Below, one piece after another: positions 66-25,681 of a stretch of DNA of 64,000 nucleotides (the stretch's first letter is position 1; each line of letters begins with the position of its first letter). Both the position numbers and the translations under genes were made by a program. Origin of the DNA: Candidatus Omnitrophota bacterium (GTDB lineage: Bacteria; Omnitrophota; Omnitrophia; Omnitrophales; Aquincolibacteriaceae); the NCBI GenBank assembly GCA_022709525.1, contig JAKLIQ010000003.1, positions 1,771-65,770 on the forward strand, written 5' to 3'. The notes under the pieces are model-generated. The model made no database searches. It had not been told where the DNA came from and worked only from the letters and a program-made list of their open reading frames with translations.

Positions 66-1139
66 TTGATTTTAGGACAATGTCCGGACTGCGGCTTCTT
101 ACAGCTGATCAACCCGATGCCGCCGTCCATGGTCCGCTCGCGTTATCCGTGGCTCATCTACCGCGAACCCGAAGAACATCTCGATGTCTTGGTCCGGCGC
201 CTTGCCGTTTCTCTTAGCAAGGATTCACTGATCATCGGCTTTACCGCGCAAGATGACCCCATGCTCGATCGTTTTAAAAAACTGGGGTATAAAAAGGCGT
301 TTTGCTGTGATAGAAAGGCCGACCTCGGCATTAGTGATCCTTGCGCCGGGCTGGAAACGATCCAGGAAACGTTCAACGATGCCGCGGCGGACCGTCTTAC
401 CGCAAAGCACGGTAAAGCGGATCTTTTGATCGCGCGTTATGCTTTAGAGCATGCCCACGCTCCCGTGAGTTTTTTAAAAACATTGAACCGCGTTCTTGCG
501 CCTTCCGGAAGGCTTGTTTTAGAAGTGCCCGATTGCCGGAAATTCATTGCCGCAGGCGATTACAGTTTTATCTGGGAAGAGCACATCAGTTATTTCTCAC
601 CGCAAACAGCGGCTGAACTAATCCGCCGCAATCACTTGGGAAAAGCGGGAATATCGGTCTATGCCCGCACGCTCGAGGATTCGCTGGTTATTATTATTCA
701 ACCAGACGGGGATCCCGCAGGACCTGCCGCAAGACCTTTTCAAGACCTTGAGTTTAAAACAATCCAACAATTTGCCGCCGGCTTCGATCCTGCCCGTTCG
801 GCTTTCCGGAATCACCTTAGCTTGCTGCAAAAAAGAGGAAAGCGGACCGCTCTTTTCGGAGCAGGGCATCTGGCGGTAAAATTTTTGAACTTCTTTGACT
901 TAAAAGGGCTCGTGGACTATGTTATTGATGACGATCCTCATAAACAAGGCTTAGCCATGCCGGGTTCGGGAATACCGATCGTTAATGCAGCATATTTACG
1001 GGAAATCGATCTGTGTTTATTGTCGCTTAATCCTGAGAACGAAAAGAAAGTCATTGCCAAACAACAAGTCAATGCGAAAAAGGGATGTTGTTTCGCCTCG
1101 ATCTTTAAGCGAAGCCCTCTTGCGTTGAAGGTCATATGA
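66..1139 (+). CDS. Class I SAM-dependent methyltransferase. It has an N-terminal CxxC...C zinc-ribbon and a C-terminal C-methyltransferase-type domain (NDP-sugar C-methyltransferase-like, TylCIII/Methyltransf_13-14 architecture). The start is TTG and the gene may begin upstream of the window edge.
   Basis: N-terminal CPDCGFLQL zinc-binding motif. Central Rossmann methyltransferase region (LLIARYALEHAHAP, GRLVLEVPD). C-terminal VIDDDPHKQGLAMPGSGIPIV motif, which is shared with the paralog at 2475..3719. Confidence 0.7.
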   Translation: MILGQCPDCGFLQLINPMPPSMVRSRYPWLIYREPEEHLDVLVRRLAVSLSKDSLIIGFTAQDDPMLDRFKKLGYKKAFCCDRKADLGISDPCAGLETIQETFNDAAADRLTAKHGKADLLIARYALEHAHAPVSFLKTLNRVLAPSGRLVLEVPDCRKFIAAGDYSFIWEEHISYFSPQTAAELIRRNHLGKAGISVYARTLEDSLVIIIQPDGDPAGPAARPFQDLEFKTIQQFAAGFDPARSAFRNHLSLLQKRGKRTALFGAGHLAVKFLNFFDLKGLVDYVIDDDPHKQGLAMPGSGIPIVNAAYLREIDLCLLSLNPENEKKVIAKQQVNAKKGCCFASIFKRSPLALKVI

Positions 1140-1690
1140 AAAAAACCGCTTTCCGTAGAATCAACAACGAAATTTTTGTTGCGCAAGACCCGATCGTTAA
1201 GATCGGGTCCGCGGAAATAAACTTTCTTAAAAAACGGGCCGTAGCAAACAAGCGGCAGCGGGCCCGGATCTGCGTGCATAAAAGTGATCGGGACAAACTG
1301 CATGAAATGATGATCGCGATCACGGCGAAAAGCTACATTCATCCTCACAAACATCCCGGAAAATCGGAATCCTTCCACGTTATTCAGGGCGCTGTCGATG
1401 TCGCTATTTTTAATGACCGCGGAGATCTTATCAATGTGGTGGAGCTCGGCGACGCATCCACCGGCAAACCTTTCTTTTACCGTTTCGAAAAAGCCGCTTA
1501 TCACACACTGCTTCTTAAGACCCCCTTTCTGGTAGTCCATGAGATCACGAACGGACCGTTTGTCCGCAAAAAAACACCGCTTGCTTCTTGGGCGCCCCCG
1601 GAAAGCCGGTTTTTCGAAGCGAAACGGTACATGAAATCTGTCGCAAAGCTTGTCAAAAGATTCAAATCGACCGCTGGGCGCGGCAAATAA
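1136..1690 (+). CDS. Cupin-fold metalloprotein, WbuC-like family, associated with sugar modification. It overlaps the upstream gene by 4 nt.
   Basis: ICVHKSD...IHPHKHPGKSESFHVIQGAVDVAIFNDRGDL is a cupin beta-barrel signature of the WbuC type. The gene is co-directional and translationally coupled within the sugar-modification cluster. Confidence 0.5.
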   Translation: MKKTAFRRINNEIFVAQDPIVKIGSAEINFLKKRAVANKRQRARICVHKSDRDKLHEMMIAITAKSYIHPHKHPGKSESFHVIQGAVDVAIFNDRGDLINVVELGDASTGKPFFYRFEKAAYHTLLLKTPFLVVHEITNGPFVRKKTPLASWAPPESRFFEAKRYMKSVAKLVKRFKSTAGRGK

Positions 1691-1705
1691 GATAGAGGAG
1701 CAATC

Positions 1706-2446
1706 ATGGTTCATACCATAGTGGTTGGCGGTACGCGGGGGCTCGGACGCGAAGTTGCAAAAACGCTTGGCATTGCAGGCCATCGGATCTCCGTTCTTGG
1801 AAGGAAGGAACCGCCGCAAAAAGACGGGAATATTTTGGGTGCGCAATACTATCAATGCGACCTTGCTGATGAACGGTCTTTGAAAAAAAAGCTTGATAGT
1901 CTGGTCAAAACACAAGGCAAACCCAGTTATATCGTATTTTGTCAGCGTTACCGGGGCCAAGGGAGCGACTGGCAAGGGGAGCTCGGCGTTACCCTTACCG
2001 CGACCAAAACCATCATTGAGACCTTAGAAAATAAATTTACTCGTTCCGGGGATAAAGGTATTGTTATGGTAAGTTCCGTTTTTGCGGAACGCGTCGGCGA
2101 CGGCCAGCCTGTCGGTTATCATGTATGTAAAGCGGGGCTGAACCAAATGATGCGTTTTTTTGCCGTCAAGCTCGGCCCGAAAGGAATCCGCGTGAACGCC
2201 GTAACGCCGTTCACTTTTTTAAAAGAAGAATCCAAAGAATTTTATCTAAAGAACAAGCCCCTTCATGATCTTTACCGGAGAATGATTCCTCTCGGGCGTA
2301 TGGCCACGAGCGAGGATAGCGCTAAAGCAGTTGCATTTTTGTGCAGTTCCCAGGCAAGTTTTATCAGCGGTCAGAATCTTTATATCGACGGCGGATTGTC
2401 TTTGGTGTGGCCTGAAACGCTCGCCCGGAAAATAGCGGCTTTATGA
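1706..2446 (+). CDS. SDR-family NAD(P)-dependent oxidoreductase (short-chain dehydrogenase/reductase).
   Basis: N-terminal VVGGTRGLGREVAK glycine-rich dinucleotide motif. An S...YxxxK catalytic region (YHVCKAGL). Length 246 aa. Confidence 0.85.
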   Translation: MVHTIVVGGTRGLGREVAKTLGIAGHRISVLGRKEPPQKDGNILGAQYYQCDLADERSLKKKLDSLVKTQGKPSYIVFCQRYRGQGSDWQGELGVTLTATKTIIETLENKFTRSGDKGIVMVSSVFAERVGDGQPVGYHVCKAGLNQMMRFFAVKLGPKGIRVNAVTPFTFLKEESKEFYLKNKPLHDLYRRMIPLGRMATSEDSAKAVAFLCSSQASFISGQNLYIDGGLSLVWPETLARKIAAL

Positions 2447-2474
2447 AAATTTCATTTTCATCCGGGAATCCTTT

Positions 2475-3719
2475 ATGATGCAAACCCTTCACCGCCGGGA
2501 ATGCTGCCGTTTGTGCGGCAGCCGCCGGCTCGAACTCGCTCTTCCGATGAAAGCATCTCCCATCGGGGATGCCTATGTGCCGGCGTCGCGCCTCAATGAG
2601 CCGCAAGATCTTTATCCATTGGACCTTTATCTCTGCGGGGATTGCGGTCATGTGCAGAATCTGGATATCGTAGACCCCGAAAGTCTATTCCGCGATTATC
2701 TTTTTACAACAAACAGTTCGAGCGGGCTTGTTGAGCATTTCCGTGCCTATGCCGAGGATGTGCTGTCTCGCCTGAAACCCAGGCCCGGCTCGCTCGTAGC
2801 CGAGATCGGCAGCAATGACGGCTCGCTTCTCAGATTTTTTAAAGACAAAGGCATGCGCGTCCTCGGCGTTGATCCCGCGCGCGATATCGCCAAACAAGCA
2901 ACGGCCTCGGGGATAGAAACCCTCCCGGAATTTTTTACTTCCGAGCTTGCTGCACAGATTCGGAAAAAGCATGGTCCGGCCGCTGTTTTTTGCGCCAATA
3001 ATGTTTTTGCGCATATCGACAATTTGACCGATATTGTGTTCGGCATCCGCGATCTTCTGGCCCAAGATGGGGTTTTTGTTTTTGAAGTTTCATACCTTGT
3101 GGATATCGTTGACCGATTTTTGTTTGACACGATCTACCATGAACATGTTTCGCATCATTCGATCGCGCCGCTCGCCAAATTTTTTGAAAAAACAGGTATG
3201 CAATTAATCGATGTGCAGCGGAATATGAGCAAGGGAGGTTCTATTCGCGGGTTTGCCCAGCGATTGGAAGGAAAACGCCCCGTCCAGCCTATTGTCAATG
3301 AGTTGATCGCGGCGGAAAAAACGAGAGGTTTTGACAGATTGCCACTTTACCGGGATTATGCCGCAAGGATTGAACGGCTTCGGGCGGCAGCCAATTCTTT
3401 TATTGATAACGAAATAGCTCGTGGCAAAACGGTCGCGGGATACGGCGCTTCGACCACCACCACCACCCTTATGTGGAGTTTTGATCTTGCCGGCAAGCTC
3501 GCTTTTGTTGCCGACGACAATCCAAAAAAACAAGGGCTTTTCTGCCCGGCCTGTCATATTCCGGTCTTGCCGTCCGCGGAACTTTACACACGACGGCCTG
3601 ATTATACGGTGATCCTTGCCTGGCAGTATGCCGACGCTATCCTGAAAAAACATGAACGCTTTATGAAGGAAGGCGGGAAATTCATCCTTCCGCTTCCGGC
3701 GCTGAAGATTTTTCCATAA
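2475..3719 (+). CDS. Class I SAM-dependent methyltransferase with an N-terminal zinc ribbon and a C-terminal C-methyltransferase domain. It is a paralog of the gene at 66..1139.
   Basis: CCRLCGS...CGDCGHVQN zinc-ribbon motif. Methyltransferase core (LVAEIGSNDGSLL, VFCANNVFAHIDN). C-terminal FVADDNPKKQGLFCPACHIPV motif. Confidence 0.8.
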   Translation: MMQTLHRRECCRLCGSRRLELALPMKASPIGDAYVPASRLNEPQDLYPLDLYLCGDCGHVQNLDIVDPESLFRDYLFTTNSSSGLVEHFRAYAEDVLSRLKPRPGSLVAEIGSNDGSLLRFFKDKGMRVLGVDPARDIAKQATASGIETLPEFFTSELAAQIRKKHGPAAVFCANNVFAHIDNLTDIVFGIRDLLAQDGVFVFEVSYLVDIVDRFLFDTIYHEHVSHHSIAPLAKFFEKTGMQLIDVQRNMSKGGSIRGFAQRLEGKRPVQPIVNELIAAEKTRGFDRLPLYRDYAARIERLRAAANSFIDNEIARGKTVAGYGASTTTTTLMWSFDLAGKLAFVADDNPKKQGLFCPACHIPVLPSAELYTRRPDYTVILAWQYADAILKKHERFMKEGGKFILPLPALKIFP

Positions 3720-3766
3720 AGCAACAAAAAACTTTACGCCTATCCGGTAAATTAGGATAAATCGCC

Positions 3767-4660
3767 ATGGATCAAAACAAGCCTCGTTTAATTCTTCATG
3801 TTGGGACCCCAAAGACGGGAACGACAACGCTGCAACAAAGCCTAAACGCCTCACAGAGCCGTTTGTTAAGCAAAGGGATTTTCTATCCTAATATCGAACT
3901 TCATCCCAGGGGCAGGGATAGCTGGATAGTTCATTGTTTGCTGAAAAACGATTTGGACAAACTCCGGAAAAACATCCGGGAAATAGCCGCAAAAGCGCGC
4001 CAAATCGGGGCGAAGCAGGTTGTGTTGTCCTGCGAAGGCATCTATACCCGTTTCCCGAATTTTTCTCGCGAAGCAAAAGAAGCGCTTCGTGAATTTGAAA
4101 AACATTTCACCGTCACCTTATGGTGTATTTTTCGAGAACCTGTTTCTTTCGCGATGTCGCTTTTTTCCCAACCTGTAAAGCATGCGCCGTGCGCCCTTTC
4201 ATCTTGCCACGGCACGTCGGAGCCACCGGAAATCGTGGCCGAACACCCGTGGTTTCAGGAGCGGCTTAACTATAAGGGCTTTATTCAGAACATCGAAGGC
4301 TTATTTTCATCTTCTGTTGTTTTGGCGACCCAATATGAACCGGGCGGCACCATTGAACAGGCAAGAAGCTTGCTGGGCGTTGATGCGGCGATCCTTTGCA
4401 GCGCGCCCGACGCTAACGTGTCCCTTAGCGCCTTAAGCGTTTATCTCATGCGTCGCTTGAATCGATTAACTCTGAAACCAAAAATGCATCGGAAACTTGT
4501 TTCAATCGTAAAAAAAATGGACAAATTTTTGAATAAAATAAGCCCTCCGTTAAGAGCATCCGATGCGATGAAAAGAAAAGTACAAGCCGTCTCTCAAAAA
4601 AGCGAAGAATTTCTCAAGAAAAAATTTGGGATTTGCTGGGATGAGGGGCTCAAATCTTAA
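3767..4660 (+). CDS. Sulfotransferase-family protein (PAPS-dependent).
   Basis: N-terminal LILHVGTPKTGTTTLQ matches the 5'-phosphosulfate-binding PKxGTT loop. A downstream REPVSFAMS-type 3'-phosphate-binding region is present. The gene lies 5 kb upstream of a cysD/cysNC PAPS-synthesis module. Confidence 0.65.
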   Translation: MDQNKPRLILHVGTPKTGTTTLQQSLNASQSRLLSKGIFYPNIELHPRGRDSWIVHCLLKNDLDKLRKNIREIAAKARQIGAKQVVLSCEGIYTRFPNFSREAKEALREFEKHFTVTLWCIFREPVSFAMSLFSQPVKHAPCALSSCHGTSEPPEIVAEHPWFQERLNYKGFIQNIEGLFSSSVVLATQYEPGGTIEQARSLLGVDAAILCSAPDANVSLSALSVYLMRRLNRLTLKPKMHRKLVSIVKKMDKFLNKISPPLRASDAMKRKVQAVSQKSEEFLKKKFGICWDEGLKS

Positions 4661-4689
4661 AGTTTGAAGGGTTTTTGGGGAGTTTCTAA

Positions 4690-5943
4690 ATGCGAGCGCA
4701 CCTCGAAGCTTTTTATTATGTGATTTTGGAACGGTGGAGACAAAAGGGATGGGCCTGGTTTTTCTCGGGGCTTGCCAGGCGCGTTGTCATTGAATTATTG
4801 TGGCTTGTTTTTTTACCCGTCAGTCTTTTGGGTCACCTGTTGGGCTATCGCTGGCTTTACGCGCAGACATGGCACATCGGACATCTGGCCGCAGACATCG
4901 ATACTTTTCTAAAAGAAAGCCGTCTCGGCCTCTTGTCTAAACGCCGCTGGTTTCTTACCGCGCCTGACCGCCTGACCGCCAATGTCCATTTGCTGCGGTA
5001 TTGGCGCGAGTTCATCCCTGTTGTTTCAGATCCTCTAACGGCTTTTGCGCTCGAATTGATCTCATGGCGATGGTTCATGAAAGAAGACCTGACGCGCTAT
5101 ATTTCAAAACACTTCGGGACGCAAGATATTTACCGGATCAACCGTCTCTGGGGCGACCGTTCTCCCATCCTCCGCCTCAACAAAGAAGATCATGCCTGGG
5201 TTCGGGAAGAGCTGGAAAGCCTCGGTTTAAAAAAAGATCAATGGTTTGTTTGTGTCCATGTTCGCGAGGGCAGTTACTTTCCTAAAAATGAGCCTATCCA
5301 GTCACACCGTAACGCCAGTATTATGAATACCGTATTAGCCATGAAAGAGATCGTTCGCCGGGGAGGGGCATGTATCCGTATGGGCGACCCGGGAATGACC
5401 CCTTTGCCGCCCATTGAAGGGGTGATCGATTATGCGCATCATTCCGCGAAATCCGAGCGGTTGGATATCGCGCTTTGCGCCCAAGCGCGTTTTTTTCTTG
5501 GCTGCACCTCAGGGCTGTCTTTTGTCAGCGCAGCTTTTGGCGTTCCGGTGGCGTTCGCCAATATGATCCCTGTCGAAACGCTCGGCATTCGAAGACACGA
5601 TCTGAGCATGCCAAAACTTCTTTGGAGCGAACCGCTGAACCGTCATCTTCGCTTCGATGAAATTTTTAATTCGAAGGCCAGCGGGTATTTTTTCACGTAT
5701 CAGTATCAAAAAGCCGGCATTCTTCCGGAGGAGAACAGTCCGGAGGATATTTACGACATAACCGTTGAAATGTTGGACCGTCTTGACGGTTGTTTTTATG
5801 AAAAACCCGAAGATCATCGCTTGCAAGCAGCCTATAAGGCGTTTTTTAAACCGGGACATTACAGCTACGGTTCGGATGCCAATGTTTGCGCCGGTTTTCT
5901 CAAGCGACATAAAGATCTTTTCGGCAATAACCCAACGCTTTAA
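4690..5943 (+). CDS. Hypothetical protein, possibly a GT-B-like glycosyltransferase (TIGR04372-like). It has an N-terminal hydrophobic segment.
   Basis: Long uninterrupted ORF with codon usage typical of neighbouring genes. The C-terminal FVCVHVREGS...GD...LGCTSGLSFVSAAFGVP pattern resembles nucleotide-sugar transferase folds. No firm family assignment is possible by eye. Confidence 0.35.
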   Translation: MRAHLEAFYYVILERWRQKGWAWFFSGLARRVVIELLWLVFLPVSLLGHLLGYRWLYAQTWHIGHLAADIDTFLKESRLGLLSKRRWFLTAPDRLTANVHLLRYWREFIPVVSDPLTAFALELISWRWFMKEDLTRYISKHFGTQDIYRINRLWGDRSPILRLNKEDHAWVREELESLGLKKDQWFVCVHVREGSYFPKNEPIQSHRNASIMNTVLAMKEIVRRGGACIRMGDPGMTPLPPIEGVIDYAHHSAKSERLDIALCAQARFFLGCTSGLSFVSAAFGVPVAFANMIPVETLGIRRHDLSMPKLLWSEPLNRHLRFDEIFNSKASGYFFTYQYQKAGILPEENSPEDIYDITVEMLDRLDGCFYEKPEDHRLQAAYKAFFKPGHYSYGSDANVCAGFLKRHKDLFGNNPTL

Positions 5944-6023
5944 GACGAACAAGTTGAAATTTTTCACGATTTAGTGTATTTCTAAAACATATAAGACCAG
6001 ACAACCCTTAAGGGTGGAAAATT

Positions 6024-7034
6024 TTGGATAGAAATCCTTCACAAAAGATCAAGCTTAGCGTTGTGATCGTTAACTGCGATACGGCCGAGATGACCCTTGG
6101 CTGCCTCCGCTCCGTTTATCAGTATAAGCCCGCCTGCTCTTTTGAAGTGATCCTGGTCAATAACGGCTCAAACGGCATCGCCCCGGAAGAGCTTGAAGAT
6201 TTTCCGCAGACCAGGATGATCAAAACCGGGAAGAATCTCGGATTCAGCAAGGCGAACAATCTCGGTATTTATAACAGTTACGGGGATTTTTTAGTTCTTC
6301 TTAATAGCGATACTAAATTGATTGATTACAGCTTCGACAAAATGATCGCTTATATGGAACAGAACGAACACGTCGGCGCTTTAGGCCCCAGGGAAGTGGA
6401 CGGGGAGCGGCGGTATCGCTTATCTTGCGGGCGTTTTCCAACCTTTTTTTCCGAACTTGCGCGCAAGATATGGCATTACCGGCTTTCAGTCAATGATTAT
6501 AGTTTTCGCGATTATCTTGATTCGAAACACGCCATGGTTAAAGACGTTGATTGGGTTTCCGGTTATTGTCTGATGCTTCGCCGGTCCGTGCTTTTGGAAA
6601 CGGGTCTTTTGGATGAGAATTTCTTCCTTTATTTTGAGGACATCGACCTTTGCACCCGTTTTTGGGAAAAAAAATGGGAGGTCCATTATTTTCCGGAAAC
6701 CAGCGTGATTCATTATGGAGGGGGATCGGCGCGACGGAATTTGATGCTCGCGATGACAGAATACCGCCGCAGCGAGATCTATTTTGCGAAAAAATATTAC
6801 GGCGCGCTTGGCGGGATCGGCATCCGCATTTTTCTGTTCTTGAAATACATCACTTATTTTTTAACCTGGACCCCCGTTTTGATTTTTCAAAAGATCATAG
6901 GCAAAGACACAAACCGGGCCTATACCATCGCGCTTCTTTCTAAGAAAGTCATTCAAATGGTTTTTACCATTTCGCATCCCGAACCGGTCGAACCCGCTTT
7001 GAACAAAAACGCGGCCAACCGGTCTTCCCCATAG
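6024..7034 (+). CDS. Family 2 glycosyltransferase (GT-A fold).
   Basis: LSVVIVNCDTAEMTLGCLRSV...ILVNNGSNG...LLNSDT (DXD-type) motifs typical of GT2. Confidence 0.85.
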   Translation: MDRNPSQKIKLSVVIVNCDTAEMTLGCLRSVYQYKPACSFEVILVNNGSNGIAPEELEDFPQTRMIKTGKNLGFSKANNLGIYNSYGDFLVLLNSDTKLIDYSFDKMIAYMEQNEHVGALGPREVDGERRYRLSCGRFPTFFSELARKIWHYRLSVNDYSFRDYLDSKHAMVKDVDWVSGYCLMLRRSVLLETGLLDENFFLYFEDIDLCTRFWEKKWEVHYFPETSVIHYGGGSARRNLMLAMTEYRRSEIYFAKKYYGALGGIGIRIFLFLKYITYFLTWTPVLIFQKIIGKDTNRAYTIALLSKKVIQMVFTISHPEPVEPALNKNAANRSSP

Positions 7035-7119
7035 TTTTTATCCGTTGAATCGATGATAAATATGGACAAAAACGCTATCGTATTTAATAATCCTACATTT
7101 CATGTAGGAGATAGATAAT

Positions 7120-7521
7120 ATGAAACTCACCACTCACAGCGAATACGGTCTTTTGGCGTTACTTTATATCTGCCGTTCAAAACGGGGGAAAAACATTCCC
7201 CTATCCAAGATCGCAAAAGCTCAAGGACTTCCGATCAAGTACATGGAACACCTCATGCAGGCTATGTGTCGAGCCGGTTACCTGGCTAGCGCTAAAGGTA
7301 AATACGGAGGGTACCTTTTGAACCGGCCCGCGGAAAAGATCACGGTCGCGGAGATCGTCCGACTTTTCGATGGGGCGCTGGCGCCGACCGGATCCGCAAG
7401 CCGCTATTTTTATAAACCTACTCCGATCGAAAAAGAAAAAAAACTATTGAAGCTCATGCGGGAAATCCGCGACTTGATCGCGAAAAAATTGGAACACACG
7501 ACCATCGCCGATATGTGTTGA
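7120..7521 (+). CDS. Rrf2-family transcriptional regulator (IscR/CymR-like).
   Basis: MKLTTHSEYGLLALLYI...SKIAKAQGLPIKYMEHLMQAMCRAGYL is the Rrf2 winged-helix signature. Length 133 aa. The gene sits immediately upstream of the sulfate uptake/activation genes. Confidence 0.85.
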   Translation: MKLTTHSEYGLLALLYICRSKRGKNIPLSKIAKAQGLPIKYMEHLMQAMCRAGYLASAKGKYGGYLLNRPAEKITVAEIVRLFDGALAPTGSASRYFYKPTPIEKEKKLLKLMREIRDLIAKKLEHTTIADMC

Positions 7522-7580
7522 TTTTTTTTGAGTAAATATCCTACCAATAATATAGGAATTAAAAACAAGGAGAGAAGATT

Positions 7581-9020
7581 ATGGACGCAGGTAAATTTTT
7601 AATAGCAGGCATCTTAGGGACGTTTTTATTGACCGCATCGTTCCACCCTCAGGCTTTTGCAGGCGACGAAGAGCTTTTGAGTCTTATCAAAGAATTGCAG
7701 AGAAAAATAGAGGCGCAGGAACAGCGCATCCAGAAATTAGAAGCGCAAGAACCCAGGATCCAGAACGACGAACTTATCAAGGATGTCGAGCTGCTCAAAC
7801 GGCAAAGAGAGGTGGATCAGGAGATCATGCTTAAAAAAGAAAAAGAAACTCCTATTGTCATCTCGAGCAAAGACGGGTTTTCTCTCAAATCGAAGGACGG
7901 CGACTTTCAGATCAAGCTCAAAGGTCAGATTCAGGCCGATGGCAGGTTTTATGCCAATGACGGCGTTCAGGCGACCCCTAACACTTTCTTGATCCGGAAG
8001 GCTCGCCCGATCCTTGAAGGCACCGCATTTCGGTACTTTGATTTTAAACTCATGCCGGATTTCGGCAGCAATCAAGTCCAGATTGTGGACGCCTATATCG
8101 ATTTTAAATATTGGAAACAAGCGGTGCTTCGGGCCGGAAAATTCAAACCTCCCATGGGCCTCGAGCGTCTTCAGCCGGACGCATGGAACCTTTTCCCCGA
8201 ACTTTCACTTGCTTCCAACCTGTTGCCTAACCGCGATCTCGGGGTAGGGATTCACGGGGAATTGTTCGGGGGCATTGTGAATTATGGCTTCGGTATTTTT
8301 AATGGCTCCGTGGATAATAGCAGCAATGATATTGATACGCAGGATGATAAAGATTTCATGGCGAGAATTTTCGTACATCCTTTTAAAAATTTTGCGCAGG
8401 ATTGGCTTAACGGACTGGGGCTTGGCTTTGCCGGAAGCATCGGAACGGCCCATTCAAACCTATTGCCTCAATATAAAACGTTCGGCCAACAGACCTTTTT
8501 TTCCTATAACAGCACGACCGAGGCGGACGGAGCGCGATATCGTTTTACCCCTCAATTTTATTATTATTTCGGTCCTTTCGGCATGCTGGGCGAGCTTGTG
8601 GAATCCATCCAGGAACTTAATAAGACAAACGCCCCGCGCGGCAGCTCCGCGTTCAGAAATAATGCGGGACAGCTCGCGGTTTCTTACGTGGTGACGGGGG
8701 AGAACGCTTCTTATACCGGCGTTACTCCGCGGAATAATTTTGATCCTAGCAAAGGAACCTGGGGGGCTTTTGAAGTCACTTCACGCTTTGACTGGTTGAG
8801 CGCCGAAAAGGATAACCTGGCCCAGTTTGCCAATCTTGCCGCATCAGCGCAACGCGCGGCCGGGTGGGCGCTCGGGTTCAACTGGTATCTTAATAAGTTT
8901 TTGAAATTTTCAACCGCTTTTGAGCAGACATTCTTTGACGATGCCGGGATCACGAAATTCGGGACCTCGCGCCATCCCAAGGAGAACGCTTTCATCGGGC
9001 GGCTTCAAATCGCATTTTAA
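7581..9020 (+). CDS. OprO/OprP-family anion-selective outer-membrane porin (Porin_O_P).
   Basis: Signal peptide. N-terminal heptad coiled-coil (LQRKIEAQEQRIQKLEAQ). A beta-rich remainder ending in an aromatic C-terminal residue (AF), typical of outer-membrane beta-barrels. The gene is located in a sulfur-assimilation context. Confidence 0.65.
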   Translation: MDAGKFLIAGILGTFLLTASFHPQAFAGDEELLSLIKELQRKIEAQEQRIQKLEAQEPRIQNDELIKDVELLKRQREVDQEIMLKKEKETPIVISSKDGFSLKSKDGDFQIKLKGQIQADGRFYANDGVQATPNTFLIRKARPILEGTAFRYFDFKLMPDFGSNQVQIVDAYIDFKYWKQAVLRAGKFKPPMGLERLQPDAWNLFPELSLASNLLPNRDLGVGIHGELFGGIVNYGFGIFNGSVDNSSNDIDTQDDKDFMARIFVHPFKNFAQDWLNGLGLGFAGSIGTAHSNLLPQYKTFGQQTFFSYNSTTEADGARYRFTPQFYYYFGPFGMLGELVESIQELNKTNAPRGSSAFRNNAGQLAVSYVVTGENASYTGVTPRNNFDPSKGTWGAFEVTSRFDWLSAEKDNLAQFANLAASAQRAAGWALGFNWYLNKFLKFSTAFEQTFFDDAGITKFGTSRHPKENAFIGRLQIAF

Positions 9021-9057
9021 GTTTTAAAAACCAGACAACCTAAAAAAGGAGTTTCCT

Positions 9058-9918
9058 ATGCCGGACATGACGTGGCAGCTTATCATCGGGATCATGGTGA
9101 TCGCTTTTTTCTGTGAATACATGGATTCAACGCTCGGAATGGGATATGGCACCACCATGACACCCGTTCTGATGCTTTTTGGCTTTACGCCGCTTGAAAT
9201 TGTCCCATCGGTTTTACTCTCAGAGCTTTTGACGGGCATGCTTTCAGGTGTAATGCATCACCGCGAAGGGAATGTGAATTTTCATTTCAAGATCTTAAAT
9301 TTTCAAAGAATAAAAGACAGCCTTAAACTTCCCGAGCCGGTCAACCCCGATTACCACACCTACGGGATACAGGTTTCCGCCCATCTTAAAGTGGTGATCC
9401 TGCTTTTAACGGCGACGATCCTCGGGTCAAGCAGCGCCGTGTTCACCGCGCGGATTCTTCCCAAACAATGGACCTCTCTTTATATCAGCTTGATGGTGAT
9501 TGCGATGGGGATTTTGATTCTGGCTTGTTTTAACAAACAATTTAAATATTCCTGGAAGAAAATCATAGGCCTTGGGCTTCTCGCGTCCTTCAACAAAGGG
9601 CTTACGGGCGGAGGGTACGGCCCTCTCGTGGTCAGTGGACAAATGCTTTCAGGGGTCCAGGGCAAAAACGCCATCGGCATTACGTCCTTGGCCGAAGGAG
9701 TCACATGCGCTCTGGGCGTGTTGATTTATTTTCTTACCGCAAAAAGCGGCATCGATTGGCGGCTCGCTCCGATCATTGTTGCGGGAGCGGTTTGCTCCGT
9801 GCCTTTTTCGGTCAAAAGCGTCAAAGTCATGCACCCTAAACTCTTAAAGGTTCTCATCGCGGTTCTGACGATTATTTTGGGGATCGTGACGCTTCTTAAA
9901 ACACTGCGTAGCTTTTAA
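9058..9918 (+). CDS. TauE/SafE (TSUP, DUF81) family anion permease, a likely sulfate/sulfite transporter.
   Basis: Eight predicted TM segments built from two repeated 4-TM units. Glycine-rich motifs (GMGYGTT, LTGGGYGPL). Directly upstream of cysD. Confidence 0.7.
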   Translation: MPDMTWQLIIGIMVIAFFCEYMDSTLGMGYGTTMTPVLMLFGFTPLEIVPSVLLSELLTGMLSGVMHHREGNVNFHFKILNFQRIKDSLKLPEPVNPDYHTYGIQVSAHLKVVILLLTATILGSSSAVFTARILPKQWTSLYISLMVIAMGILILACFNKQFKYSWKKIIGLGLLASFNKGLTGGGYGPLVVSGQMLSGVQGKNAIGITSLAEGVTCALGVLIYFLTAKSGIDWRLAPIIVAGAVCSVPFSVKSVKVMHPKLLKVLIAVLTIILGIVTLLKTLRSF

Positions 9919-9945
9919 TCCGCGTTGCGGGTATTATAAAAGGCT

Positions 9946-10851
9946 ATGGAGAATTATCGTATAAGCAAGCTCCGCCTTCTTGAGGCGGAGAGCATCCATA
10001 TCCTCCGCGAAGTTGTCGCAACGTTTGAGCGACCGGTCATGCTCTATTCGGTCGGCAAAGATTCCTCGGTCATGGTCCGCTTGGCCCAGAAAGCCTTTTT
10101 TCCCGGGAAGATCCCCTTTCCTCTGCTTCATGTCGATACAGGCATGAAATTTAAAGAAATGTATGAATTCCGGGATTGCTACATACAGCAGATCGGAGCG
10201 GATCTCCGCGTTTACATCTACCGCGAAGCGTTGGAAAACGGAGCCAATCCTTGGGACCTCGGAACCGTCAAATGCTGTGCTTTTTTGAAAACGCAGGCTC
10301 TTCTGAACGCTCTCAAAGAAGGCCGTTACGACGCCGCTTTCGGAGGCGCTCGCCGGGATGAAGAAAAGTCCAGGGCCAAAGAGCGCATTTTTTCTTTTCG
10401 GGATGAACACGGGCAGTGGGATCCCAAAAACCAGCGGCCCGAGCTTTGGGGTCTTTATAATACCCTGGTTAACAAAGGTGAAAGTATCCGCGTCTTCCCT
10501 TTGTCTAACTGGACCGAGCTGGATGTTTGGGAATACATCCATCTTGAGAGGATCCCCGTAGTTCCCATGTATTTCGCCAAGGAGCGGGATATGGTCGTAA
10601 GGGAAGGGCGCCTGATCCCGCTTGACGGTCCCGTCCCTTTGAAAGAAAACGAAAAACCCCAAAAAATCCTCTGCCGTTTCCGGACGTTAGGCTGTTATCC
10701 CTGCACAGGGGCGGTAACATCTTCAGCCGCGACCGTGCCCGAGATTATTCGTGAAATCATGACCGTTAAGAACTCCGAACGGATCACCCGCTTAATCGAT
10801 CACGACCAAGATTCTTCCATGGAGCAAAAGAAAAAAGAAGGTTATTTCTAG
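9946..10851 (+). CDS. cysD: Sulfate adenylyltransferase subunit 2.
   Basis: PAPS-reductase-fold motifs [19 protein letters not shown]. Length 301 aa. Stop/start abuts cysN. Confidence 0.9.
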
Positions 10852-12774
10852 ATGGGGCAAAAGAATGACGCCGAAAAATTAATTCTGACTCGCAGCGAAG
10901 ACGCCGAACTGCTCCGCCTCGCGACCGCGGGAAGCGTTGATGACGGAAAATCCACGCTGATCGGGCGGTTGCTCTATGAGGCGAACGGTCTTTATGAGGA
11001 CCAGCTTGCTTCGGTCCGTCAGGATTCAGGAAGGTTTAAAAGGGAAGAGCTGGATCTTTCGCTTGTTATGGACGGATTAAAGGCGGAGCGGGAACAGGGG
11101 ATCACGATCGACGTGGCTTACCGCTATTTTTCGACCCCCAAAAGAAATTTCATTATCGCGGATACGCCGGGCCACGAACAATATACCCGGAACATGGCGA
11201 CCGGCGCTTCGACCGCCGATCTCGCCATCATTTTAATTGATGCCCGCCACGGCCTGCTTCCTCAGTCAAAACGGCACGCTTTTATCGCCTCGCTTCTCGG
11301 GATCCGGCATATGGTCGTCGCGGTCAATAAAATGGACCTTGTCCATTATTCGGAGGAAATTTTTAGAAAGATTGAAAAAGACTTCACTAATTTTTCTGAA
11401 AAATTACGGATCTCGGACCTTCTTTACATTCCGATCAGCGCTCTGAAAGGGGATAACGTAGTCCGCCGGAGCCCGAACATGCCGTGGTATGAAGGGCCGG
11501 CCCTTCTAAGCCATCTGGAGAACGTTCATGTGACGAGCGACCGCAACCTCATCGACCTCCGTTTGCCGGTCCAATACGTTCTTCGCCCTAACATGGATTT
11601 TCGGGGCTATTGCGGCCGTCTCGCCGGCGGCGTGATCCGCAAGGGAGATGAAATTCTTATCCTGCCTTCCCAGCAACGTTCCCGCGTAAAATCCCTTGTC
11701 ACTTATGAAAAAGAAGTCCCATACGCCTTTACGCCCCAATCGATCACAGTGACGTTGGAGGATAATGTCGATATCACGCGCGGCGATATGCTGGTCCACC
11801 CCGGCAATCTTCCCCAGATCCGCCGGGAAATAGAGGCGATCCTTGTATGGATGGACCAAAAACCGCTTCAGGCGGGGCGTATCTATTGGATCAAGCACAC
11901 CTCTCAGTTATTGAAGGGAAGCGTCACCCAGCTGCATTTTAAGATCAACCCCGAGGATCTAGGACGTCAAAAAACGAAAGATTTCAAACTTAACGAGATC
12001 GGCCGCGTGACGATCCAGCTTTTCCGGTCAATTTTTTGTGACGAATATACCAAAAACCGTGAAACCGGAAGTTTTATCATGATCGACCCGGTAACACACG
12101 CCACCGTTGCGGCCGGAACTCTTATCGAGCGCGGCCGTTTGCCCGCCGCCACGAAAGAAAAAAAACATAAAACAATCTCGTTGCACCGCCAGGAAGGATC
12201 CATTGCCCCCAAAGACCGCGAACGGATTCTAAAACAAAAACCGGCCACTCTTTGGCTGACGGGGTTAAGCGGCTCCGGGAAATCAAGCATCGCTTTTGCG
12301 CTGGAAAAACGCCTTATGGCCGAAGGCCATCTTTGTTATGTTCTGGACGGCGATAACGTCCGCCATGGGCTGAATAAAGATCTCGGTTTTTCGCCTCAAG
12401 ACCGCAGCGAAAATATACGCCGCGTTGCCGAAGTCGCAAATCTTTTCAATGATGCCGGCATTTTAGTGATGACCGCCTTTATTTCTCCTTATCGCGAGGA
12501 CCGCGAACAGGCAAAGCAGATCATCGGCGAAGACCGTTTTCTCGAAATATTTGTCGATGCTCCCGTTGAAGTTTGTAAAAAACGGGACCCTAAGCGGCTT
12601 TACGAAAAGGCCGAAGCGGGTCTTATTCCGGAATTTACGGGAGTCAACGCCCCTTATGAAGTGCCGCTCACGTCCGCCGTTCATCTCAAAACCGATCAAG
12701 AAGACCTGAACGCCTGCCTTCAAAAAATCCTGGATCTTTTAAGAAGCAGGGGTTTTTTAAAAGGGAAAGACTGA
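10852..12774 (+). CDS. cysNC: Bifunctional sulfate adenylyltransferase subunit 1 (GTPase) / adenylyl-sulfate kinase.
   Basis: N-terminal GTPase motifs (GSVDDGKSTLIGRL, DTPGHEQY, NKMD). C-terminal APS-kinase P-loop (LTGLSGSGKSSIA) and the region around DGDNVRHGL. Confidence 0.9.
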   Translation: MGQKNDAEKLILTRSEDAELLRLATAGSVDDGKSTLIGRLLYEANGLYEDQLASVRQDSGRFKREELDLSLVMDGLKAEREQGITIDVAYRYFSTPKRNFIIADTPGHEQYTRNMATGASTADLAIILIDARHGLLPQSKRHAFIASLLGIRHMVVAVNKMDLVHYSEEIFRKIEKDFTNFSEKLRISDLLYIPISALKGDNVVRRSPNMPWYEGPALLSHLENVHVTSDRNLIDLRLPVQYVLRPNMDFRGYCGRLAGGVIRKGDEILILPSQQRSRVKSLVTYEKEVPYAFTPQSITVTLEDNVDITRGDMLVHPGNLPQIRREIEAILVWMDQKPLQAGRIYWIKHTSQLLKGSVTQLHFKINPEDLGRQKTKDFKLNEIGRVTIQLFRSIFCDEYTKNRETGSFIMIDPVTHATVAAGTLIERGRLPAATKEKKHKTISLHRQEGSIAPKDRERILKQKPATLWLTGLSGSGKSSIAFALEKRLMAEGHLCYVLDGDNVRHGLNKDLGFSPQDRSENIRRVAEVANLFNDAGILVMTAFISPYREDREQAKQIIGEDRFLEIFVDAPVEVCKKRDPKRLYEKAEAGLIPEFTGVNAPYEVPLTSAVHLKTDQEDLNACLQKILDLLRSRGFLKGKD

Positions 12775-12898: not shown

Positions 12899-14461
12899 AT
12901 GTTCAAAAGTTTCGCGGCGCGCCTTTCGATCGTTTTTTTTCTTTCCACAGCGCTTGTCCTTCTCGGCCTTTTTTCCTTCTTTTATTTCAAAGCCGCCAAG
13001 CTTCGCGATGACGCGTTCAAACAATACCTCGAAAACCTGACCGAAGCGAGCGCCAACCTAATCCCCGGCGAAGACGTCCGGGCGGTCCCGCTCGAGCCGG
13101 GATGCGAAACATCTTCCGACGGGCAGGCGCTTATCAAAAAACTTCAAAGTATCCGTTCGGTCGATAAAGACGTCTTTGACGTTTATATCATGGTCCCCGA
13201 TCCGGATCCCGGGTTTTTGCGCTTTGTGACGAATGCCGACCGTGAACGCACACCGGTTGGCTGCGGGGAACGGTATGATATCCGCGAAGATCCCGGAATG
13301 CGGGCGGGCTTTATGAGTTCTTATGCGGATATGGTTCCCGGGACGGACAAATGGGGGACTTGGGTGTCAGCTTACGCCCCTTTAAAGACCCGCGCGGGAG
13401 AAACGGTCGGCATTCTCGGGATCGATATCGCTCAGCAAACCGTCGCTGAGATCCGGGGGGAGTTTTTCGGCCTTTTTCTTTTATCCATGGGCGTCTGTCT
13501 TGGGCTTTCGCTCGCCACCGGCCTTTTGTGTTCTTTTTGGCTCACGAAACCCATCCGTCAAACTGTCAAAGGCATGGAGATCGTCGCGGGCGGGAACATC
13601 GAGCACAAACTCGAACACTTCGCGGAAGCGGAGTTCGAACGCATGTCCGGCATTTTCAACCGCATGACGGATTCGCTCAAACGCATGATGCACGAACTGG
13701 CCGAGACTGTGCGCGAGAATGAACGCGTCAAGCGCGAGCTTGAGATCGCCTCCGAGATCCAGGAGTCCATTTTCCCCGCGCGTCCGCCCGAGGTCGAAGG
13801 CCTCGAGATCGAGGCCCGGAGCGTCCCGGCCAAAGAAGTGGGAGGCGATTATTTTGATTTTCTTCCCGTGCCGTCCAAAGACCAGACGGGCTTTATTATC
13901 GCCGACGCCTCCGGCAAAGGGCTTCCCGGCACCTTGTACATGACCCGCTCGCGAAGCGTTTTCAGGGTCATCTCTTCTGAAGAAAGCAGCCCCGGAGAAA
14001 CCCTGAACCGCTCGAATAATTACATCGCCGCGGACGCTTCATCAGGCAAAGGCATGTTCATCACGGTTCTTTATCTGATCTATGACAAGGATAAAAAACA
14101 GATGCGATACGCCAATGCGGGCCATTACCACCCGCTTTGGTACAAGGGCAAAGAAAGGACCTTCGCTGATTCTGAGATAAGCGGTATCCCCCTAGGCATT
14201 GTCTCCGGACAGACCTACCTTGAGGAGACGATCCAGCTCGCCTCCCAGGACCTGCTCGTTCTTTACACGGATGGCGTGATCGAAGCGAAGGCAGAGGACG
14301 GCCGGATGTTCGGCGTCGAAAAACTGAAAAAGATCATTGAAGAGAACAGCTCGCTCGGCGCACATGATCTTTTCGCGAAGATCGAAGCGGGGATCAAAGA
14401 GTTCATCGGAAAAGCGCCGCCTTTTGATGATCTGACTTTGATCGTGATCCGGGTAAAATAA
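12899..14461 (+). CDS. Membrane-bound PP2C-type serine phosphatase (SpoIIE/RsbU family) with an N-terminal extracytoplasmic sensor region and a HAMP domain.
   Basis: Two TM segments flank a roughly 170 aa periplasmic region. A HAMP-like linker follows (IRQTVKGMEIVAGGNIEHKLEHF...FNRMTDSLKRM). The PP2C core has metal-binding motifs (GGDYFDF, IADASGKG, DGV). Confidence 0.8.
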   Translation: MFKSFAARLSIVFFLSTALVLLGLFSFFYFKAAKLRDDAFKQYLENLTEASANLIPGEDVRAVPLEPGCETSSDGQALIKKLQSIRSVDKDVFDVYIMVPDPDPGFLRFVTNADRERTPVGCGERYDIREDPGMRAGFMSSYADMVPGTDKWGTWVSAYAPLKTRAGETVGILGIDIAQQTVAEIRGEFFGLFLLSMGVCLGLSLATGLLCSFWLTKPIRQTVKGMEIVAGGNIEHKLEHFAEAEFERMSGIFNRMTDSLKRMMHELAETVRENERVKRELEIASEIQESIFPARPPEVEGLEIEARSVPAKEVGGDYFDFLPVPSKDQTGFIIADASGKGLPGTLYMTRSRSVFRVISSEESSPGETLNRSNNYIAADASSGKGMFITVLYLIYDKDKKQMRYANAGHYHPLWYKGKERTFADSEISGIPLGIVSGQTYLEETIQLASQDLLVLYTDGVIEAKAEDGRMFGVEKLKKIIEENSSLGAHDLFAKIEAGIKEFIGKAPPFDDLTLIVIRVK

Positions 14462-14531
14462 GGCACGCAAGCGGGCTTTTTTGTGATGAAAGCCCTCCGA
14501 AAACCCCTATAATAAGCCCTCTTATTCATTT

Positions 14532-15038
14532 ATGGAAAAACCACATCACGAACATTTCATGAAAGAAGCGCTGAAACAAGCCGCGATCGCGCTTGAAAAA
14601 GGCGAGGTGCCGGTGGGCGCCGTGGTGGTGTGGAAGCAAAAGATCGTTGCGCGGGCTTACAATCAAATGGAAATGCTCAAAGACCCGACCGCGCACGCCG
14701 AAATGATCGCCCTGACACAAGCTTCGGAAACCTTAAGCCAGACGCCGGAGGCAAAACCGGCCGTCGGCCGGGAACACCGGGGGTCGCTTGAAGGAGCGAC
14801 GCTTTATGTGACGCTAGAGCCGTGCCCCATGTGCGCCGGGGCGCTTGTCATGACCAAATGCACGAGCCTTGTTTACGGCGCGCAGGACCCGAAGGCGGGC
14901 GCGTGCCGCAGTCTTTACCGGATCACCGAGGACGACCGGCTGAACCATCGCCTTAAGGTCACGGGCGGCGTGATGGCGGATGATGCGAAATTCCTCTTGT
15001 CGGAATTTTTTAAAAATCTAAGAAAAGAGAAACGGTAA
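14532..15038 (+). CDS. tadA: tRNA adenosine(34) deaminase.
   Basis: CMP/dCMP deaminase zinc motifs HAEMIAL and [10 protein letters not shown]. Confidence 0.9.
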
Positions 15039-15043
15039 AACGC

Positions 15044-15079
15044 GGAGAGGTGCCAGAGCGGTTGAATGGGGCAGTCTTG
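15044..15079 (+). pseudogene. 5' half of a tRNA-Ser(UGA)-type gene. It runs from acceptor GGAGAGG through the D-arm to anticodon-loop ...CAGTCTTG, and is interrupted after anticodon position 35.
   Basis: Near-identical to the first 36 nt of the intact tRNA-Ser at 15394..15481. The acceptor GGAGAGG is complementary to CCTCTCC in the 3' half at 15598..15604. Confidence 0.6.
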
Positions 15080-15129
15080 CCACCGCCTGCGAAGCGGCGG
15101 GGTCCCGCCTCTTTTCGGGCGGGAAAAAC
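15080..15129 (+). repeat. Copy 1 of a 50-nt double GC-hairpin element: CCACCGCCTGCGAAGCGGCGGGGTCCCGCCTCTTTTCGGGCGGGAAAAAC.
   Basis: Two stem-loops (CCGCC/GGCGG and CCCGCC/GGCGGG) followed by an A-run. Near-identical copies are at 15509..15558 and 60511..60559. Confidence 0.8.
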
Positions 15130-15145
15130 CAGTTGGGAAAACAAC

Positions 15146-15415
15146 ATGTGGTATGTTTATATTCTCAAGAGCCTGAAAACGGGGCGATATTATGTGGGGT
15201 ATGCAGAAGACCTCGAAAAAAGACTTGAGCAACACAATAGTGGAAAAACGAGATTGTTGAAATCCCATTTGCCACTAGCGCTCATTTATAATGAAAAATA
15301 TGCAAGCAAGTCCGAAGCTTATTTAAGAGAAAAGAAAATCAAGAGTTATAAAAGCGGAGAAGCGTTTAGGCGATTGATACGCAATCAAAATTTGGAGGCG
15401 TGCCAGAGCGGTTGA
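15146..15415 (+). CDS. GIY-YIG nuclease-family protein, small YhbQ/UPF0213 type, 89 aa.
   Basis: MWYVYILKS...GRYYVGYAEDLEKRLEQHNSGK is the GIY-YIG motif. The 15050..15415 ORF in the provided track starts inside the tRNA fragment. The first ATG with spacing from the A-rich leader is 15146. The stop codon lies inside the downstream tRNA gene. Confidence 0.8.
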   Translation: MWYVYILKSLKTGRYYVGYAEDLEKRLEQHNSGKTRLLKSHLPLALIYNEKYASKSEAYLREKKIKSYKSGEAFRRLIRNQNLEACQSG

Positions 15416-15481
15416 ATGGGGCAGTCTTGAAAACTGCTAAGGTCCTTGTGGCCTTCAGAGGTTCGAATCCTCTCGCCTCCG
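15394..15481 (+). tRNA. tRNA-Ser (anticodon UGA), intact, no encoded CCA.
   Basis: Acceptor GGAGGCG/CGCCTCC. 3-bp D-stem. Anticodon stem GCAGT/ACTGC with loop CTTGAAA. Long variable arm. T-arm AGAGG-TTCGAAT-CCTCT. Discriminator G. Confidence 0.8.
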
Positions 15482-15508
15482 ATTCATTTTGATTGCGGAG
15501 CGGTCTTG

Positions 15509-15558
15509 CCACCGCCTGCGAAGCGGCGGGGTCCCGCCTCTTTTCGGGCGGGAAAAAC
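15509..15558 (+). repeat. Copy 2 of the 50-nt double-hairpin element. It is preceded by a 14-nt remnant of a tRNA 5' half (GCGGAGCGGTCTTG).
   Basis: Identical to copy 1. The flanking 5' remnant matches the end of a tRNA-Ser 5' half. Confidence 0.8.
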
Positions 15559-15608
15559 TGCTAAGGTCCTTGTGGCCTTCAGAGGTTCGAATCCCTCCCT
15601 CTCCGCCA
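15554..15608 (+). pseudogene. 3' half of a tRNA-Ser(UGA)-type gene with encoded CCA. It runs from anticodon-loop AAAACTGC through the variable and T arms to acceptor CCTCTCC-G-CCA. Its T-stem is imperfect, so it is probably a decayed remnant.
   Basis: Matches the 3' portion of the intact tRNA. The acceptor pairs with the displaced 5' half at 15044. The T-stem 3' strand CCCTC does not pair well with AGAGG. Confidence 0.5.
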
Positions 15609-15610
15609 TG
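15588..15610 (+). repeat. 23-bp direct repeat, copy 1: CGAATCCCTCCCTCTCCGCCATG. This is the tRNA 3' end and candidate attL-like site.
   Basis: A perfect second copy lies at 15791..15813. Confidence 0.7.
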
Positions 15611-15635
15611 TTTTCATTATGATTCCAAGGAGAAC

Positions 15636-15779: not shown

Positions 15780-15790
15780 GCGGAAGGCGC

Positions 15791-25664: not shown

Positions 25665-25681
25665 CGCGTCGCGTCGAGATC

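Follow-up and report, generated by a model that had tools for sequence, protein, structure and literature searches.

A candidate sulfate supply line in a gene row for a probable sulfated, methylated glycan of an Omnitrophota bacterium

We analyzed a stretch of DNA of 64 kb from a Candidatus Omnitrophota bacterium (contig JAKLIQ010000003.1, positions 1,771–65,770), called the window throughout, which carries a row of genes for sugar-modifying enzymes, a divergent sulfotransferase, and the putative uptake of sulfate and its activation to 3′-phosphoadenosine 5′-phosphosulfate (PAPS). All genes at positions 1–12774 lie on the + strand with intergenic gaps of 0–125 nt, and they make up the 3′ half of a same-strand row of ~22 kb in total that starts ~9 kb 5′ of the window. 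The last five genes of the row are rrf2, a porin gene, a TSUP permease gene, cysD, and cysNC. Taken together, the observations below make it likely that the row builds a methylated, sulfated surface glycan and that its sulfate is supplied by these five genes as a self-contained line. Based on Pfam and NCBIfam scans of the products of the window open reading frames (ORFs), the genes were identified as follows.

1–1139, + strand: zinc-ribbon C-methyltransferase, 3′ part (PF08484 and PF13489 on the in-window part)
1136–1690, + strand: WbuC-family cupin (TIGR04366, 133 bits against a cut-off of 42)
1706–2446, + strand: short-chain dehydrogenase/reductase, SDR (PF13561, E = 6.5e−36)
2475–3719, + strand: zinc-ribbon sugar C-methyltransferase (PF08421, 1.2e−18; PF08484, 7.7e−46)
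3767–4660, + strand: divergent sulfotransferase, 297 aa (family profiles lead to sulfotransferases; PAPS motifs kept)
4690–5943, + strand: glycosyltransferase of the TIGR04372 family (204.5 bits against a cut-off of 45, E = 1.2e−60)
6024–7034, + strand: family 2 glycosyltransferase, GT2 (PF00535, E = 6.4e−18)
7120–7521, + strand: Rrf2-family regulator, CymR-like (PF02082, 1.1e−27)
7581–9020, + strand: outer-membrane anion porin of the OprP/OprO fold (PF07396, Porin_O_P, E = 7.7e−30, 104.8 bits against a cut-off of 20.9)
9058–9918, + strand: TSUP (TauE/SafE, DUF81) inner-membrane permease (PF01925, 1.3e−27, 97.4 bits against a cut-off of 32.6)
9946–10851, + strand: CysD, ATP sulfurylase small subunit (TIGR02039, 448.9 bits against a cut-off of 396.6)
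10852–12774, + strand: CysN-CysC fusion, ATP sulfurylase GTPase subunit and adenosine 5′-phosphosulfate (APS) kinase (NF004035, 915.2 bits against a cut-off of 715)

Every gene named in the initial annotation was present, on one strand and with short gaps. The range given there, 3767–12774, leaves out the methyltransferases, the cupin, and the SDR, which lie at 1–3719, and the second glycosyltransferase, at 4690–5943 (TIGR04372), had been overlooked. The C-methyltransferase gene ending at 1139 starts ~54 nt before the window, and its whole product of 397 aa, read from other assemblies (L001 and L006), carries the PF08421 zinc-binding domain. For the GT2, other gene callers start at the ATG at 6063, and the product is called as 323 or 336 aa. 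The APS kinase domain of the CysN-CysC fusion spans residues 464–612.

The DNA 5′ of position 1 was obtained from other assemblies of the same contig (L006–L009), which reach ~9 kb further. It encodes, in order, a tetratricopeptide repeat (TPR) protein, a methyltransferase, a TylF-type O-methyltransferase, a 457-aa protein of unassigned function, a 611-aa double sulfotransferase, a 306-aa PF00685 sulfotransferase, a methyltransferase, and the C-methyltransferase cut by the window edge. In the 611-aa protein (L006 5389–7224), the N-terminal sulfotransferase domain is PF17784 and the C-terminal one is PF00685. Immediately 5′ of position 1, where reductive sulfate genes would have spoken against the initial annotation, two further sulfotransferase genes and methyltransferases were found instead, and no reductive sulfate gene was detected in the ~9 kb. 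Its observation that no cysH, cysI, or cysJ follows the row holds more widely: family scans of the long ORFs making up the gene rows of the 64 kb revealed no cysH, cysI, cysJ, or other sulfite reductase, and neither a PAPS/APS reductase nor a sulfite reductase, which together mark an assimilatory operon, was found in the window or the 9 kb upstream.

PAPS synthesis genes beside sulfotransferases

The arrangement of cysD and cysNC beside sulfotransferase genes recurs in several loci: in the window together with its upstream DNA (L006), and in those designated L012, L096, L097, and P0018. The L012 row consists of cysD, cysNC, a 297-aa gene of the same family as the protein encoded at 3767–4660 (the 3767 protein), a PMT_2-like gene, an ATP-binding cassette (ABC) exporter, a second 3767-family gene whose product is 55% identical to the 3767 protein, and a Sulfotransfer_3 gene; the 297-aa gene and the end of cysNC overlap, and hhalign placed this gene in the family (probability 100, 52% identity). 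In L096, the order is Wzy_C, TSUP, cysD, cysNC, Wzm, and Wzt, with Sulfotransfer_3 further along, and in L097 it is TSUP, cysD, cysNC, Sulfotransfer_3, KAS III, SDR, PglD-like (sugar N-)acetyltransferases, and GT2. The P0018 locus begins with four sulfotransferases, Wzx, GT4, a methyltransferase, Rrf2, and a porin, and continues with Sbp, CysT, CysW, CysA fused to an APS kinase, cysD, cysNC, and a PMT_2 gene. The CysA-APS kinase fusion of the latter (14381–16036, 551 aa; ABC_tran, CysA_C_terminal, TOBE_3, and PF01583) lies directly upstream of cysD and the cysN-cysC fusion, so that the locus has two APS kinase domains.

When the CysD and CysNC proteins of L012, L096, L097, and their close relatives were compared with those of the window, the P0018 locus being set aside, CysD was 82–88% and CysNC 72–78% identical between the window and the three loci, which marks a tight clade. 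The CysD proteins of two Omnitrophota loci with cysH in the cluster (L022 and L054) were 37–38% identical to that of the window and, by sequence, belong to a different clade. Recurrence in three arrangements of the same clade, with a fourth cysD-cysNC pair in P0018, gives good support to the view that PAPS is made here for glycan sulfation, which does not imply that it is used exclusively for this. The initial annotation had proposed PAPS as a sulfuryl donor rather than for cysteine synthesis; the first half of this proposal is well supported by the recurrent sulfotransferase linkage, and the second half is one possibility. Two more contexts of 3767 homologs, both without cys genes, are glycan clusters, one with Wzm, Wzt, and glycosyltransferases and the other with GT2, RmlC, and a C-methyltransferase. 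In L010 (9133–10891) and L096 (13857–16187), a 3767-family gene or TSUP-cysDNC adjoins Wzm and a Wzt with the Wzt_C carbohydrate-binding domain; because of this neighborhood, an O-antigen pathway of the ABC-transporter-dependent type may read sulfate as a cap that ends the chain.

The best-surviving alternative is that the five-gene module is an ordinary assimilatory sulfate operon that neighbors the glycan cluster by chance, with its PAPS going mainly to reductases encoded elsewhere, for cysteine. Several observations weigh on this side. Sulfate-uptake operons of a general kind also contain the porin clade and the Rrf2 gene, and among the 80 porin loci described below, cysH was found within 10 kb of the porin gene in 13 and cysI in 9. 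The regulator is CymR-like, as is typical of cysteine metabolism. A serine O-acetyltransferase gene, cysE, is located at 24990–25664 (TIGR01172, 237 bits against 211), so the cell makes O-acetylserine and probably fixes sulfide directly. PAPS may thus serve assimilation as well as sulfation. A further point against the sulfation reading is that no CysQ-type phosphatase for 3′-phosphoadenosine 5′-phosphate (PAP) was found in the cluster. As an explanation of the whole module, however, assimilation is unlikely: the reductive genes are missing from the window and the 9 kb upstream, the cysD/cysNC clade of the window lies beside sulfotransferases in three differently ordered clusters, with a cysD-cysNC pair beside them in a fourth, cysNC of L012 overlaps at its end with a gene of the sulfotransferase family, and the cysH-linked CysD of other Omnitrophota falls into the other clade.

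A divergent, probable sulfotransferase family

The 3767 protein had been called a PAPS-type sulfotransferase in the initial annotation because of its PKTGTT loop. As a single sequence, it gave no useful match in Pfam, NCBIfam, or the PDB, and it stayed below the Pfam gathering thresholds (PF00685, 12.0 bits against 22; PF13469, 14.8 bits against 27); on sequence grounds it is a superfamily relative outside Pfam families PF00685 and PF13469. A word-indexed search yielded 13 relatives, of which one carried PF00685, and when these were scanned one by one, 5–6 of the 13 touched PF00685 or PF13469, the best at E = 7.6e−8 (PF00685). A profile built from the 13 relatives (A1) matched the bacterial sulfotransferase 3rnl in the PDB at E = 6.2e−6, followed by heparan sulfate 3-O-sulfotransferases at 0.16, and no enzyme class besides sulfotransferases; with a second profile, built from 47 diverse members (A3), 3rnl again ranked first (9e−4). 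Only 5 of these 47 members reached PF13469, weakly. In the alignment of A1 with 3rnl, PKTGTT stands opposite KCGTSS and REPLSFALS opposite RNPVDRAFS, corresponding to two PAPS-binding motifs in the gene.

3809–3826, + strand: PKTGTT, 5′-phosphosulfate-binding (PSB) loop, residues 15–20 (conservation, 3rnl alignment, and model)
4133–4159, + strand: R123-x7-S131, 3′-phosphate-binding (3′-PB) motif, REPVSFAMS (conservation and alignment to RNPVDRAFS of 3rnl)

Among 47 homologs, H11, G13, T17, Q23, E90, R123, and Y169 were invariant, and K16, G18, T19, H51, S88, and S131 were nearly so; E90 and H51 are candidate catalytic bases. An AlphaFold (AF2) model of the protein (predicted local distance difference test score, pLDDT, 88.6) places the PKTGTT loop between strand 7–13 (strand 1) and helix 19–28 (helix 1), with R123 at the end of strand 115–122 and S131 in helix 125–138. 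We take K-T-G-T-T, with lysine ahead of glycine, to be the PSB pattern of sulfotransferases, not a Walker A motif (GxxxxGK[ST]). On the other side, Foldseek matches of the model to the PDB were weak (best E = 1.7e−3, TM-scores of 0.3–0.4), with sulfotransferases interleaved with P-loop kinases and GPN GTPases. On balance, the 3767 protein is very likely a PAPS-dependent sulfotransferase, of a branch without a Pfam or NCBIfam model. The initial call is upheld in that the loop is genuine, the family profiles match sulfotransferases, and both PAPS-binding motifs are kept; no P-loop family other than sulfotransferases was matched in the profile searches.

That the protein might be another nucleotide-binding enzyme of a P-loop-like α/β fold, such as a kinase acting on a glycan, is suggested by the lack of a Pfam or NCBIfam match and by top Foldseek matches that include GPN-loop GTPases, PFKFB kinase domains, and nucleoside kinases, scoring like sulfotransferases. 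This is improbable, because the loop has the PSB rather than the Walker A pattern, the conserved R-x7-S aligns to the 3′-PB motif of 3rnl, the significant sequence-profile matches are all sulfotransferases, and a gene of the family is linked to cysD-cysNC in L012.

The family is large: an exhaustive profile search retrieved 34,759 representatives at E ≤ 1e−3 and 17,875 at E ≤ 1e−10. In many members, the domain is the C-terminal part of a ~600-aa protein with an unassigned N-terminal half, or is repeated up to four times; relatives were also observed in proteins of 1,100–1,700 aa with up to four matched stretches (P0145, P0149, and P0171). The NCBI product of the 3767 gene (P0001) has 240 aa and lacks the first 57 residues, and hence the PKTGTT loop, although the full N-terminus is kept in all homologs. 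In assembly GCA_035454205.1, the gene is broken into pieces of 212 and 47 aa (L008 12632–13536).

Putative sulfate uptake genes and their regulator

To place the porin, the best 80 porin loci from species-representative genomes (porin 38–67% identical) were searched with reference proteins within 10 kb. The species of the window is not among these loci, in which the closest porin is 67% identical, and they span Omnitrophota, Verrucomicrobiota, Acidobacteriota, Planctomycetota, Latescibacterota, Methylomirabilota, Gemmatimonadota, Proteobacteria, and others. The reference Sbp and CysTWA were confirmed as a sulfate system by NCBIfam on L095 (TIGR00971, TIGR02139, and TIGR02140). Sbp was found near the porin in 71/80 loci, usually directly 3′ of it, and CysT, CysW, and CysA in 62/80, 57/80, and 61/80, respectively; Rrf2 was present in 43/80. 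Conversely, PstS was found in 0/80 loci and PhoU in 1/80. TSUP was seen near 0/80 of the porins, as were homologs of three query sulfotransferases. Because Sbp is present in 71/80 loci and PstS in none, the likely substrate of the porin is sulfate or thiosulfate, not phosphate, and the phosphate-porin reading suggested by the source label of the clade (“phosphate-selective porin OprO/OprP”) was rejected. From this gene neighborhood, the clade probably forms the outer-membrane entry of operons for sulfate uptake, frequently under Rrf2 control. The porin shares its beta-barrel family (PF07396) with the phosphate/polyphosphate porins OprP and OprO of Pseudomonas, and many basic residues are invariant in its clade, fitting anion selectivity, whereas the clade is tied to Sbp/CysTWA (71/80) rather than to Pst (0/80). 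A literature search of incomplete coverage found no paper on a sulfate-linked porin clade or an Rrf2-sulfate operon, and porins do not come up in a review of sulfate transporters.

Among relatives of the porin on long contigs, that of the P0018 locus is the closest, at 64% identity, and TSUP takes the slot between the porin and cysD that sbp-cysTWA holds there. Three groups of TSUP relatives were found: the first has the order TSUP-cysD-cysNC (83–87% identity), the second cysD-TSUP-cysN (57–59% identity), and the third Rrf2-TSUP (~55% identity), with Rrf2 proteins 45–49% identical to that of the window. A porin and a TSUP gene occurred together in 0/80 porin loci and 0/35 TSUP loci (115 sampled, the contigs of this species aside); the module of the window looks like a mosaic of porin-type and TSUP-type modules. 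The uptake arrangement had been described as unusual, which holds for the porin with TSUP in place of sbp-cysTWA; the Rrf2-porin pair itself is a widespread front end of sulfate ABC operons. CysZ of Corynebacterium glutamicum, a DUF81 permease, is genetically required for growth on sulfate (PMC1266029). From the slot, the neighbors of its relatives, and the CysZ precedent, we infer that TSUP is the inner-membrane sulfate importer.

The C. glutamicum cluster fpr2-cysIXHDNYZ likewise has a TSUP-family permease, CysZ, next to cysD and cysN, as a sulfate importer replacing the ABC system (PMC1266029). That cluster is reductive, with cysH and cysI and no sulfotransferases (PMC1266029); C. glutamicum is a monoderm, and therefore no porin is present there. 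It is improbable that TSUP is an exporter, whether of sulfite, of a sulfonate, or of some sulfated product or intermediate, with sulfate entering by another route: the Pfam name TauE/SafE suggests export, since the Pfam description gives sulfite or sulfoacetate as the exported substrates of characterized members, and TSUP functions are poorly defined (PMC5840216), but the gene sits in the exact sbp-cysTWA slot of the related P0018 locus, its relatives at 40–87% identity adjoin cysD and cysN or a cognate Rrf2 gene, the DUF81 protein CysZ is needed genetically for growth on sulfate (PMC1266029), and no other sulfate transporter was found in the window. A half-size TauE/TSUP protein of 117 aa is encoded elsewhere, following cysE and an RNase H-like gene (24990–26461); its best NCBIfam match, a weak one, is to the C-terminus of MamO.

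The Rrf2 protein matched the superfamily model TIGR00738 (100.9 bits against 73.3). Its best NCBIfam equivalog was CymR (NF047409) with 75 bits against a cut-off of 195, and IscR scored 56 against 208. It has no C-x5-C-x5-C motif for Fe-S ligands, its only cysteines being C18, C50, and C133. Judged by these scores, it is a member of the Rrf2 superfamily only, not of the CymR or IscR/NsrR equivalogs. CymR of Bacillus subtilis is an Rrf2-family master regulator of cysteine metabolism; like CymR, the window protein lacks the three-cysteine Fe-S motif and heads sulfur-acquisition genes, but it falls far under the equivalog cut-off (75 against 195 bits) and its candidate operator differs. The B. 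subtilis CymR-box consensus matched only partially and was not used. The following candidate regulatory features were identified around the gene.

7063–7091, + strand: sigma-70-like promoter candidate, TGGACA-17-AATAAT (10/12 consensus matches; number of such sites in the region at chance level)
7092–7108, no strand assigned: candidate Rrf2 operator, perfect palindrome CCTACATTTCATGTAGG, downstream of the −10-like hexamer and ahead of the rrf2 ribosome-binding site
7540–7556, + strand: second candidate operator copy CCTACCAATAATATAGG, upstream of the porin gene

The 17-nt pattern CCTAC-N8-TAGG shared by the two candidate operators occurs in these two places only in the 64-kb window, against 0.05 expected, which suggests autoregulated repression of an rrf2-porin-TSUP-cysD-cysNC unit via the two sites. 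When the regions 5′ of the 80 porin genes were compared by k-mers, no shared motif emerged beyond composition. The pattern is specific to the lineage of the window, and the relatives with 45–49% identical Rrf2 carry another palindrome: in the Rrf2-TSUP relatives L111, L112, and L116, a long palindrome, TTGTCTATAATATCTATAGACAAG, lies upstream of rrf2 and overlaps a TATAAT-like box. Because the palindromes differ, each lineage seems to own its Rrf2 operator on its own promoter.

Proposed pathway, known systems, and meaning

In the pathway that we propose, a cluster-less, CymR-like Rrf2 repressor would control its own promoter and the porin gene via the two CCTAC-N8-TAGG sites. Sulfate would then pass the outer membrane through the OprP-fold porin, as the tie of its clade to sbp-cysTWA suggests, and would be carried over the inner membrane by TSUP, as suggested by its position and relatives. 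According to their family assignments, CysD and CysN would convert it to APS and the fused CysC would convert APS to PAPS. The PAPS would be used by the 3767 sulfotransferase and at least two sulfotransferase proteins encoded just upstream of the window. Their acceptor sugars would be made and modified by the methyltransferases (C- and O-type), the cupin of the WbuC family, the SDR, and the glycosyltransferases.

Homologs of CysD and CysN-CysC also feed PAPS to a neighboring sulfotransferase, not to cysteine, in NodP/NodQ/NodH of Sinorhizobium meliloti and RaxP/RaxQ/RaxST of Xanthomonas oryzae. The Nod acceptor is a lipo-chitooligosaccharide and the Rax acceptor is a peptide tyrosine, neither of them a polysaccharide, and both genomes also keep housekeeping cys genes. 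To our knowledge, neither system has a linked uptake module.

For polysaccharides, the sulfated capsule cluster of Vibrio sp. KMM 8419 has second copies of cysC, cysN, and cysD along with three sulfotransferases, and its authors regard the pairing of PAPS genes with sulfotransferases as a hallmark of sulfated polysaccharide synthesis (PMC11641403). It resembles the window in that PAPS-synthesis genes lie within a polysaccharide cluster with several sulfotransferases and glycosyltransferases (PMC11641403). It belongs to another phylum and has sulfotransferases of other families, its product structure was solved by NMR whereas the glycan of the window is predicted from genes, and, unlike in the window, no regulator, outer-membrane porin, or permease is known to be described for the module (PMC11641403). 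Polysaccharide clusters holding both PAPS genes and sulfotransferases are already known (PMC11641403). What is new here is the whole supply chain in one row (regulator, outer-membrane porin, inner-membrane permease, and activation), TSUP in place of an ABC transporter, the host phylum, and a sulfotransferase family without a Pfam or NCBIfam model. A search of the literature, whose coverage is incomplete, found nothing relevant on sulfotransferases in Omnitrophota, and the main genomic survey of the phylum does not mention sulfation (PMC10066038).

Elsewhere in the window, at 44508–46247 (− strand), a myo-inositol-1-phosphate synthase gene adjoins a CDP-alcohol phosphatidyltransferase gene, and an inositol monophosphatase-family gene lies at 34627–35415 (− strand). 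These inositol-related genes suggest that an inositol lipid or an inositol-phosphate solute is made; the latter gene also scores weakly as CysQ, so it could encode a PAP phosphatase. A tricarboxylic acid cycle gene row (isocitrate dehydrogenase, malate dehydrogenase, aconitase, and citrate synthase) occupies 35531–41502. Three ORFs on the − strand, at 21844–23571 (575 aa), 43431–44507 (358 aa), and 31702–32295 (197 aa), had no Pfam match at E ≤ 1e−5.

Judging by this cluster, the uncultured phylum Omnitrophota may include makers of surface glycans that are both sulfated and methylated, and hence a candidate new glycan producer. It also yields three annotations that can be tested: a sulfate-operon porin clade now labeled “phosphate-selective”, a TSUP clade behaving as the sulfate permease of PAPS modules, and a large sulfotransferase family missed by current domain libraries. 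A further-reaching combination of these points is possible but rather doubtful, namely that this lineage lacks any reductive sulfate assimilation and takes up sulfate for one purpose only, the sulfation of a methylated surface glycan, through a sulfate-specific OprP-fold porin clade misannotated as phosphate-selective across many phyla, with a cluster-less Rrf2 sulfur sensor and a very large glycan sulfotransferase family without a Pfam or NCBIfam model (~17,900 cluster representatives at E ≤ 1e−10). Anaerobic sludge is reported to contain sulfated polymers whose producers are not known (PMC7356697). If this combined reading is true, bacteria of this kind could be one source of the sulfated polymers in anaerobic granular sludge.

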